A stretch of 64,000 bases of DNA from Vampirovibrionales bacterium (GTDB lineage: Bacteria > Cyanobacteriota > Vampirovibrionia > Vampirovibrionales > Vampirovibrionaceae). The notes beneath the pieces are model-generated. The model did not search any database. It saw only the letters and a list, made by a program, of their open reading frames with translations, and had not been told where the DNA came from. The stretch covers positions 49,688-113,687 of the forward strand of contig JARXAD010000002.1 of assembly GCA_029866025.1 (NCBI GenBank), given 5' to 3'. Positions 3,019 through 5,511 of this stretch are shown here, one piece after another (position 1 is the stretch's first letter; every line of letters starts with the position of its first letter). The position numbers and the translations under genes are program-made.

Positions 3019-5511
3019 ATGTCTACTGCCATGACTACCCCCCCCCCCTCCTCCGGCTCGTCCACTTCTACCAACGCCGATTACGGCGCTGACCAAATCC
3101 GGATTTTAGAAGGTCTGGAGGCTGTTCGCTTACGGCCAGGGATGTATATTGGTTCCACCAGCCAACGCGGCTTGCACCATCTAGTTTACGAGATTGTGGA
3201 CAACTCCATTGACGAAGCCTTGGCCGGCTACTGCACCGATATTACGGTCACCATCCACGAAGACGATAGTGTTTCCGTAGCCGACAACGGCCGTGGCATT
3301 CCAGTTGCCCCAAAGCCAGACTATGATAACAAATCAACCTTAGAAATTGTTCATACCGTTCTCCACGCCGGTGGAAAATTTGGAGACGGCGGGTACAAAG
3401 TCTCGGGCGGACTCCATGGTGTGGGCGCTTCAGTTGTGAACGCACTGAGTGAAAAATTTACGGTAGAAGTCAGTCGTGATGGTGGGCTTCACCGCCAGAA
3501 CTACGCGAAAGGCGACCCTTTAGGCCCTGTTAGCGTGGTGGGCACTTCTACTAAAACGGGTACCTACACCCACTTTTGGCCGGACAGCAGCATTTTTGAA
3601 ACCACCGTCATGGATGGCGACGTGATTGGCGCTCGCCTGCAAGAGATGGCCTTTCTCAACAAGGGCCTAAAACTTATCTATATTGATAAGAAAGCTCAAA
3701 CTGAGCAGGTATTCTGCTACGAAGGCGGCATTGGCAGCTACGTAGCATACTTAAACGAAAGCAAAACCGTTGTTAGTAACGAGTTGTTTTACTGCGACGA
3801 AGAGCGCGATGGTGTTACGGTGGAGGTCTCCCTCCAATACACCGACTCTTACAGCGAAACCGTGCTGTGCTTTGCCAACAATATCAATACCTCTCATGGC
3901 GGAACCCACTTAACTGGTTTTCGCAATGCACTCACTCGGATTCTCAATGAGTATGCTCGCAAAGCCAATGTGCTGAAGGAAAAAGACGACAACCTAAGCG
4001 GTGACGACGTTCGTGAGGGCCTAACCGCTATTATTAGTGTGAAAGTGCCCAACCCTCAGTTTGAAGGCCAAACCAAAGAAAAGCTGGGAAACAGCGAAGT
4101 CCAAGGCATAACCCAAGCCATTGTGGCGGAAAAGCTGGCCGACTGGCTGGAACTCCACCCCAAAGAGGGCAAAGGCATTGTCATGAAGGCTGTGATGGCC
4201 TCTCAAGCCCGTGAAGCTGCCCGAAAAGCCCGTGAGCTTACCCGCCGTAAAACGGCATTGGAAAGCAGCAACTTGCCAGGCAAACTGGCTGACTGTGCTA
4301 GCCGCGAACCCGAGCGCTGTGAAATTTACATTGTTGAGGGCGATTCGGCTGGCGGTAGTGCCAAACAAGGTCGCAACCGTGAGTTTCAGGCAATTTTACC
4401 CCTGAGAGGCAAAATTTTAAACGTAGAACGCGCTCGTTTGGACAAAATTTATAACAATAACGAAATTCAAAGCCTCATTACGGCCTTGGGCATTGCCATT
4501 TCTCGCAATGAAGAAGACTTTAACTGCGACAGCCTTCGGTATCATAAAATCATTATCATGACGGATGCAGACGTGGACGGTGCCCACATTCGCACTTTAC
4601 TTCTCACCTTCTTGTTCCGTTATTGCCGCCCTCTCATTGAAAATGGGTACGTTTACATTGCCCAGCCACCGTTGTACAAGTTGGCTCACGGTAAAAACGA
4701 AGAATACCTCTACAACGATCGTGCCCTGGAAAGCCGCTTGCTAGAACGTGGGCTGCAAAAAACCGCTCTAATGAGCACGGATCGCAGCCAAACCCTAACC
4801 GGCGATGTGTTGCAAACCACCATGCAGCAGCTACGTCAGTGGATGCGACTGCACAACGCCCTGGAATTTGTGACGCTACCGGCTGGTATTTTAAATTGGC
4901 TACTGGAACAACGAGTAACCGAGGCCGCTTTTGCCTCTGCCGAAGCTTTAGCCCCCATTCAGCAATCTCTCGCCACGTTTTGGACGGGCGGTACAGTGGC
5001 TGGCGGTACAGATCCTGTGTCGGGTCGTCCGATGATCATCCTTCAGCCAAGCGATGTGACCATGGCCAATGACAGTGTAGAAGCAGCCCAAGCCGTTGCC
5101 TTAAGCATTGATACAGTAGCCAACCGAGATTACGAGCGTTTGCTACAGCTGGCTGAGCTGTTAAAAGATGTCTTGCCCACAGAACAACGCCCCCTTACTC
5201 TGCAGCAAGAAGCCAAAGAAGGTCCCGCTACCGAGCGTGAGTTTGTGAACCTAGCCGAGTTGTTTAGCTGGGTGGATGAACGTGGCAAAAAAGGCCTGAC
5301 CTTACAACGTTTTAAGGGCTTAGGTGAAATGATGCCCAAACAACTGTGGGACACCACCATGAACCCAGAAACGCGCACGTTGCTTAAGGTTGAAATCGAA
5401 GATGCGGCGTTGTCCGATAAACTCTTCGATACCTTGATGGGTGAACGGGTAGAACCTCGTCGTGCCTTTATTGAGCTGAATGCCCAGAAAGCCCACAACG
5501 TGGATGTGTAA
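3019..5511 (+). CDS. gyrB: DNA gyrase subunit B, long form with a ~165-aa C-terminal insertion.
   Basis: Motifs [35 protein letters not shown], Toprim [13 protein letters not shown] and the C-terminal KGLGEM. The insertion is of the type seen in E. coli-like GyrB. The start could be ATG 3019 or ATG 3031. A C11 run sits in codons 7-10. Confidence 0.9.

Follow-up and report, generated by a model that had tools for sequence, protein, structure and literature searches.

Long G/C homopolymers in a 64-kb window of a Vampirovibrionales genome, including a C11 tract in gyrB, as candidate slippage-prone sites

A 64,000-nt stretch of one metagenome-assembled genome (MAG) of an uncultured Vampirovibrionales bacterium (assembly GCA_029866025.1, contig JARXAD010000002.1, positions 49,688 to 113,687; here called the window) carries four long G/C homopolymers, the first of which lies near the start of gyrB, the gene for DNA gyrase subunit B. 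The other three are located in a macro-domain open reading frame (ORF) and in two ORFans (Table 1; all coordinates are window positions). Inspection of the letters alone had originally placed a C11 run in codons 7 to 10 of gyrB together with G10, C9, and G12 runs elsewhere, and each was found where it had been reported; the last is a C12 on the forward strand and a G12 on the coding strand. The G+C content of the window was 49.8% rather than the roughly 52% first assumed. G/C run lengths were bimodal, with three runs of 7, none of 8, and then 9, 10, 11, and 12. Three of the four long runs fall inside about the first 20 codons of their ORFs, and the G10 occupies codons 84 to 87 of 323. Two imperfect C-rich tracts were also seen, C6-A-C7 at 42036 to 42049, which codes for S-T-P-H-P-P-S in an aminotransferase gene, and C4-A-C6 at 55046 to 55056; these could be decayed or nascent homopolymers.

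Table 1. Genes, homopolymers, and a putative alternative start in the window
Feature	Position	Strand	Description
gyrB	3019-5511	+	830 aa from ATG 3019; NCBI record P0001 from ATG 3031, 826 aa
TTG, hypothetical rescue start	3015-3017	+	-1 frame; in TTTTGAATG motif shared with relative L001
C11 homopolymer	3038-3048	+	In gyrB; Pro8-Pro10, ACC CCC CCC CCC TCC
Macro-domain ORF	10066-11037	+	323 aa; Pfam Macro; 109 homologues
G10 homopolymer	10316-10325	+	In macro-domain ORF; Arg84-Gly85-Gly86-Gly87, AGG GGG GGG GGA
ORFan QE263_02255	34603-35046	+	147 aa; lower-GC segment between PEPCK and glutamate dehydrogenase genes
C9 homopolymer	34628-34636	+	Codons 9-12 of 147-aa ORFan, GCC CCC CCC CAC
ORFan QE263_02315	47243-47923	-	226 aa; low-GC (29-43%) insert between FAA-hydrolase and CoA-transferase genes
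G12 homopolymer	47866-47877	-	Codons 16-20 of 226-aa ORFan, CGG GGG GGG GGG GAT

The gyrB product is a complete GyrB with the Pfam domains HATPase_c, DNA_gyraseB, Toprim, and GyrB_C, and Pfam matches, PDB alignments, and 8,000 homologues all identified it as DNA gyrase subunit B. It is 100% identical to the NCBI MAG protein MDH4378689.1, and its homologues are GyrB proteins of Vampirovibrionales. The gene begins ATG TCT ACT GCC ATG ACT ACC CCC CCC CCC TCC TCC. Read from ATG 3019, the C11 spans the second and third bases of codon 7 (ACC) plus the CCC codons 8 to 10; read from the NCBI start, it falls in codons 3 to 6. In PDB alignments, Tyr22 and Ile27 correspond to Tyr5 and Ile10 of Escherichia coli GyrB, and homology to solved GyrB structures begins at residues 17 to 21. 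The N-terminal arm of E. coli GyrB comprises residues 2 to 15, from which Tyr5 and Ile10 reach the ATP site of the partner subunit. Given this alignment, the functional arm begins 12 residues past the Pro run. E. coli GyrB has 4 residues before the conserved Tyr, whereas the protein analyzed here has 21, in the form of a lineage-variable Ser/Thr/Pro tail. Across 120 homologues, this tail measured 5 to 56 residues and was rich in Ser, Thr, Pro, and Gln, without conserved sequence. Since the tail is hypervariable and lies upstream of the homology to solved structures, the Pro run within it is free in both sequence and length. A PPP motif was present in only two of the 120 aligned tails, the one described here and P0003, and the C11 tract was conserved in none of the other 119 homologues. 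It is also the only PPP tripeptide encoded by the 55-gene set of the window, where CCC is the commonest Pro codon (40% of Pro codons), and all three of its codons are CCC.

Farther downstream in GyrB, an insertion was observed in the Toprim region (window 4700 to 5300, residues ~560 to 755), and the insert region aligned end to end with residues 502 to 804 of E. coli-type GyrB. The 120 listed GyrB proteins from Vampirovibrionales/Melainabacteria were similar in length, at 793 to 916 aa, and Pfam GyrB_insert matched 1 of the 120.

The macro-domain ORF lies in a sharply bounded insert of 33 to 45% GC between CoA-transferase and PBP genes of 53 to 56% GC, and its G10 run codes for R-G-G-G at the Gly-rich motif of the macro domain. 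GGG makes up 18.5% of the Gly codons in the window gene set. The window encodes 12 GGG tripeptides, two of which are spelled entirely with GGG codons, both in accessory ORFs that carry runs. Neither the 147-aa nor the 226-aa ORF had a homologue among 5.8e9 proteins. Both have a Shine-Dalgarno (SD)-like motif upstream of the ATG (GAAAGG at 10 nt and AAGGAA at 9 nt, respectively), and both are longer than expected by chance, with their lengths reached in 12 of 3,000 and 0 of 3,000 shuffles, respectively. Structure prediction for the 226-aa ORF was unusable (mean predicted local distance difference test [pLDDT] score, 43). A phage origin of the accessory ORFs was considered and set aside, with zero matches in phage records or viral contigs. 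PADLOC returned no convincing defense match, with none for the macro-domain and 226-aa ORFs and a marginal pAgo match for the 147-aa ORF (E = 0.007). A common mobile element or paralogous leader behind the four runs was also rejected, as the tract regions resembled each other only in the runs themselves.

The excess of long G/C runs is statistically real. Four runs of at least 9 and three of at least 10 were observed, whereas analytic Markov models of order 0 to 5 expected 0.14 to 1.1 and 0.03 to 0.32, respectively. An order-6 model expected 2.2 and 0.95, against which the counts were not significant (P = 0.18 and 0.07), but its parameters include the long runs themselves and the expectation is thereby inflated. 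Synonymous codon shuffling of the 55-gene set, a null that preserves every protein sequence, gave 0.22 to 0.51 runs of at least 9 and 0.12 to 0.13 of at least 10, and none of 2,000 within-gene shuffles reached the observed counts. As a control for composition only, 1.65 Mb of gyrB-flanking DNA from 83 other loci, which were among the matches listed for GyrB and come mostly from distant taxa, contained one run of at least 9 and none of at least 10. Around gyrB in four Vampirovibrionales relatives (90 kb), no run of at least 9 was found, where 5.6 would be expected at the rate of the window (P = 0.004), and the longest G/C runs in the relatives compared were up to 8. The excess is thus specific to this genome and not order-wide, and the original suggestion of such an excess was borne out by the order 0 to 5 models, the codon shuffles, and both empirical controls. 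The density in the window, ~60 runs per Mb, would exceed that of Campylobacter if it held genome-wide.

All four ORFs are in frame and of full length at the assembled run lengths, a state that does not fit a programmed-frameshift or transcriptional-slippage gene. In silico, any change of ±1 or ±2 nt at the four runs truncated the product to 13 to 106 aa, and the runs are nearer to start codons than would be predicted for randomly placed tracts (Fisher combined P = 0.006), so the tracts are placed where a ±1 change would switch expression. The earlier statement that all lie in the 5′ portion of their ORFs therefore stands as a significant bias, with the G10, which is not at the extreme 5′ end, as the poorest fit. 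Each of the C11, G10, C9, and G12 runs also exceeds the threshold of ~7 to 8 or more G/C at which perfect mononucleotide tracts become unstable.

No in-frame ATG occurs in the interval from the gyrB tract to the conserved Tyr22, as had been noted for the stretch up to the conserved core, and no in-frame GTG or TTG either; a ±1 slip would thus remove GyrB. A partial exception lies upstream. The TTG at 3015 opens the gyrB frame in in silico variants with a tract of C10 or C13, giving a full-length protein with an altered 8-residue N terminus, while the C9 and C12 variants had no rescuing start. The original claim that a ±1 slip abolishes GyrB unless translation starts downstream thus holds for C12 and has to be relaxed for C10 and C13, which the upstream TTG could serve. 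This TTG did not evolve for rescue, since L001 has TTTTGAATG as well but lacks the tract. Gyrase is essential, and OFF variants of gyrB are not expected to be viable unless a second copy lies outside the 64 kb of the window.

Perfect runs were not conserved in relatives. L001, which among the relatives found is the closest at the gyrB locus (86% GyrB identity), reads ACC ACC CCT AAC at the C11 site and has no run. L002 (69% GyrB identity), the source of P0003, reads ACC CCA CCC CCT TCC (M-T-P-P-P-S), which is equal in length and two synonymous changes away from C11. The flanks of the C11 are collinear with L001 and L002 on both sides. At the macro-domain locus, the CoA-transferase and PBP genes of L001 are adjacent and the macro-domain ORF is absent from that position; a 321-aa ORF of L001 was examined as a possible homologue and showed no similarity. 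The closest relative for this gene, L086 (a Logan contig from SRR26425193), has the same macro-PBP arrangement, and its PBP gene is ~84% identical to that of the window, compared with 75 to 80% for L001. The G10 flanks are collinear with L086 on both sides, and the site itself reads GGGTGGGGGG, which is of equal length but interrupted and codes for R-V-G-G. The L086 macro-domain gene is split by a 1-nt deletion ~35 nt downstream of the tract. In both comparisons of a perfect run with a relative that could be made (L002 for gyrB and L086 for the macro-domain gene), the runs differed by substitutions at the same length and not by an indel; those of L002 and L086 are interrupted at equal length, a difference of substitution and not of slippage. 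No publication dealing with the source assembly or with SRR26425193 was found.

Identity between the window and L086 changes abruptly around the G10. From 9982 to 10341 (L086 positions 1870 to 2230), covering the upstream region and the first ~88 macro-domain codons, it was 95 to 100%, and just past the G10 it was 65 to 85%, with ~84% in the adjacent PBP gene. The break in this alignment resembles a recombination boundary of recent date, located at the tract or close to it. A rearrangement was also seen when window 3019 to 17300 was compared with L001 (GCA_046328025.1): the gyrB segment has the opposite orientation with respect to the ArgRS-PenR-CoA transferase-PBP-flagellin block, one breakpoint being directly upstream of the gyrB start.

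With moderate confidence, we favor a reading in which all four runs are real and prone to slippage, the gyrB C11 being a young, non-adaptive liability and the accessory runs being candidate phase-variable loci. The proneness to slippage is proposed by analogy with other bacteria such as Campylobacter jejuni, where the slippage rate of G/C runs of 8 to 11 is 1e-4 to 4e-3 per division (PMC3401435). Mononucleotide repeats are generally avoided in coding DNA (PMC1378130), but protein termini tolerate repeats, and in phase-varying species N termini are over-enriched for them (PMC3315296). In gyrB, a PPP motif would have lain in an unconstrained Ser/Thr/Pro-rich tail, after an ACC codon, where all three Pro codons could have become the preferred CCC. 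In-frame (±3) changes in tract length should be harmless there. A ±1 slip would destroy GyrB, with a -1 slip perhaps partly rescued from TTG 3015. Because a ±1 slip destroys GyrB, the tract is better seen as a mutational liability, either tolerated or so far not removed by selection, than as a regulatory switch; it is most likely not a switch. We infer that it may be a recent by-product of codon homogenization in a free tail, persisting as a modest mutational load.

The three accessory runs are better candidates for slipped-strand phase variation, having the anatomy of ON/OFF contingency loci as known from other species. A slip in these low-GC, lineage-restricted ORFs, near their 5′ ends, could produce a clean ON/OFF change. 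The low-GC inserts, the all-GGG triplets, the 5′ bias, the early stops, the ORF lengths, and the SD-like motifs are all consistent with a switch. Dispensability of the three ORFs is plausible, as they are lineage restricted and in low-GC inserts, and the macro-domain gene is absent in L001 and frameshifted in L086. The original proposal that such tracts are substrates for phase variation is thus supported in its general part by the lengths of 9 to 12, the 5′ bias, and the truncating slips, but nothing shows gyrB to be phase variable by design.

Several points weigh against this combined account. Searches by exact protein (GyrB from both starts, the NCBI record P0001, ArgRS, and the 226-aa ORF) returned no record of the same species, and a tract-spanning DNA pattern had no match in Joint Genome Institute (JGI) metagenomes; a degenerate 15-residue protein pattern had a sole match, in an unrelated organism of 66% GC. 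Slippage as fast as in C. jejuni would produce gyrB-null cells in ~0.1 to 0.4% of divisions. C. jejuni lacks mismatch repair. Selection acting on a large population should purge such a cost, and so persistence of the tract needs a low slip rate, a recent origin, or a small effective population size. L086 has an interrupted macro-domain tract and a frameshift at another place in the gene, which argues against strong selection to keep the tract, and two of the three accessory genes are without homologues or known function. A single cause for all four runs would also be more economical than a liability for one and a switch for three.

One such single cause is a lineage-specific mutation bias or relaxed selection behind all four runs, none of them functional; it is the main alternative to the favored reading, although we consider it rather unlikely. 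Under this explanation, transient-misalignment (dislocation) substitutions would perfect interrupted runs, which would then persist because mismatch repair is weak or absent or because the effective population is small. It accords with the two comparable runs, which differ from their interrupted versions by substitution at equal length, and with the restriction of the excess to this genome, given that the runs of relatives reach 8 only. The imperfect C-rich tracts at 42036 and 55046 fit it too, as does the location of one of the four runs in an essential gene, where selection for switching would not favor it. However, the runs are not randomly spread, as the 5′ bias attests, and three of the four lie in accessory ORFs of low GC content, in which one would least expect G runs. 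The number of tracts is also small, at four.

An error of sequencing or assembly, with wrong run lengths or with near-homopolymers such as CCCACCCCCT and GGGTGGGGGG homogenized in the consensus, appears distinctly improbable. In its favor, the excess is seen in a single MAG, long reads are possible given a contig of 486 kb, and in both comparisons the run of the relative is interrupted at identical length, as homogenization of the consensus would yield. Nevertheless, at the 5 to 30% divergence of the relatives compared, differences at single bases would be expected in any case. The two runs for which homology determines the frame, those in gyrB and in the macro domain, are both in frame, and their flanking sequences are collinear with L001, L002, and L086, without a chimeric join or contig end. 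Errors in long reads usually make runs shorter and disrupt frames. The window has a coding density of 87% (55 ORFs), with long intact ORFs and no sign of rampant homopolymer frameshifts. As judged from the assembly, no broken conserved frame, contig end, or unrelated join was found at the gyrB and macro-domain runs.

It is highly improbable that the runs belong to a genome-wide set of G/C-homopolymer contingency loci in this lineage that includes gyrB, with the tract slipping reversibly between C11 (read from ATG) and C10 (read from the weak TTG at 3015) and producing low-gyrase subpopulations. On that reading the tracts might also serve as recombination boundaries, a possibility hinted at by the identity break at the macro-domain tract. 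Equally doubtful is tuning of gyrB taken alone, with full gyrase levels from C11, low levels from C10, and lethality of C12. Such tuning would draw on the full-length protein obtained from C10 or C13 with TTG 3015, on an N-terminal tail that tolerates any sequence, and on a tract length in the highly mutable range. Against this, the TTG sits in the TTTTGAATG motif that is also present in tract-less L001, the tract was conserved in 0 of 119 homologues, and half of the slips (+1) would still be lethal. Nor was a promoter or RNA-structure signal found at the gyrB 5′ end, which had a fold z-score of +1.0 (no unusual RNA structure), no sigma-70-like site, and no Rfam match.

Synthesis of PPP depends on EF-P, and selection at the protein or translation level could make GyrB synthesis EF-P dependent through an early PPP, with the homopolymer merely its spelling; PPP does recur at the same tail position in P0003 of L002 in other codons, so that the peptide motif and not the DNA run is common to the two lineages, but this explanation is very improbable, as the nearest relative lacks PPP, as do 118 of the 120 aligned GyrB proteins, and as the use of three CCC codons and the other three runs would be left unexplained.

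Under the favored reading of a liability in gyrB and candidate switches in the accessory genes, the closest known systems are the poly-G/C contingency loci of C. jejuni (and also of Helicobacter, Neisseria, and Haemophilus), in which perfect runs of 8 to 12 G/C lie in the 5′ part of an ORF and a ±1 slip toggles the frame. The C. jejuni loci have a modal length of about 9, and G11 slips at 1.6 to 4.1e-3 per division (PMC3401435). N-terminal enrichment is a recognized signature of phase-variable repeats (PMC3315296). Loci of the C. jejuni type belong to host-adapted pathogens, lie mostly in surface-structure or restriction-modification genes, and have demonstrated length polymorphism, the decisive defining trait of a phase-variable locus, whereas the runs described here are in an uncultured member of the Vampirovibrionales, affect an essential gene, a macro-domain gene, and two ORFans, and are known from assembled sequence alone. 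A second parallel is the C run of glpK in Mycobacterium tuberculosis, where a reversible homopolymer frameshift causes loss of function in a core metabolic gene. Like gyrB, glpK is a non-surface gene of housekeeping type, but it is conditionally dispensable and its variants occur in clinical isolates, whereas gyrB is essential and its tract is known from a single assembly. Poly-A tracts of endosymbionts are tolerated in essential genes under weak selection, and polymerase infidelity partly rescues their out-of-frame alleles. The endosymbiont runs consist of A/T and lie in reduced, AT-rich genomes, with many genomic copies out of frame, in contrast to the G/C runs described here, which lie in DNA of 50% GC and are all four in frame.

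Simple-sequence hypermutable tracts are thus a known kind of feature; as far as we know, their presence in a Vampirovibrionales lineage and within an essential gene is new. Length heterogeneity in reads would be, to our knowledge, a first indication that the non-photosynthetic sister lineage of the cyanobacteria has homopolymer-based phase variation, in genes of unknown function. It would also make gyrB an uncommon natural example of a highly mutable tract within an essential gene and a gauge of how strongly selection purges such hazards in uncultured bacteria of possibly small population size. With uniform lengths, the C11 would be an oddity of codon usage in a disordered tail. The four run positions are sites to check whenever this MAG is re-assembled or polished.

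Other features of the window were noted. Just upstream of gyrB, the first 42 nt of a tRNA-Met gene (2535 to 2607, reverse strand) are present three times at 112-nt spacing (2571 to 2612, 2683 to 2724, and 2795 to 2836), and a 98-nt unit is duplicated within 2535 to 2836. This arrangement resembles att-site scars from repeated integrations. An island of 36 to 39% GC (window 1 to 3000) adjoins the tRNA-Met gene and contains an ORF on the reverse strand (672 to 2408) for a 578-aa AAA_15/AAA_21 ATPase, the best PADLOC matches of which were GajA (Gabija), AriA, and OLD-family ATPase-Toprim proteins; it is probably a defense island.

Between 26953 and 32597, four consecutive forward-strand ORFs (306, 332, 446, and 609 aa) had no Pfam match, and a 167-aa phosphopantetheinyl transferase is encoded among the ORFs of this region. 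The minC-minD-minE genes (49876 to 53041) have unusually long products, with MinC of 403 aa, MinD of 360 aa including an N-terminal extension of ~90 aa, and MinE of 254 aa if its earliest possible start is used. A tRNA-Cys gene lies at 20833 to 20906, and an RNase P RNA of bacterial class A was identified at 63134 to 63526 (228 bits).

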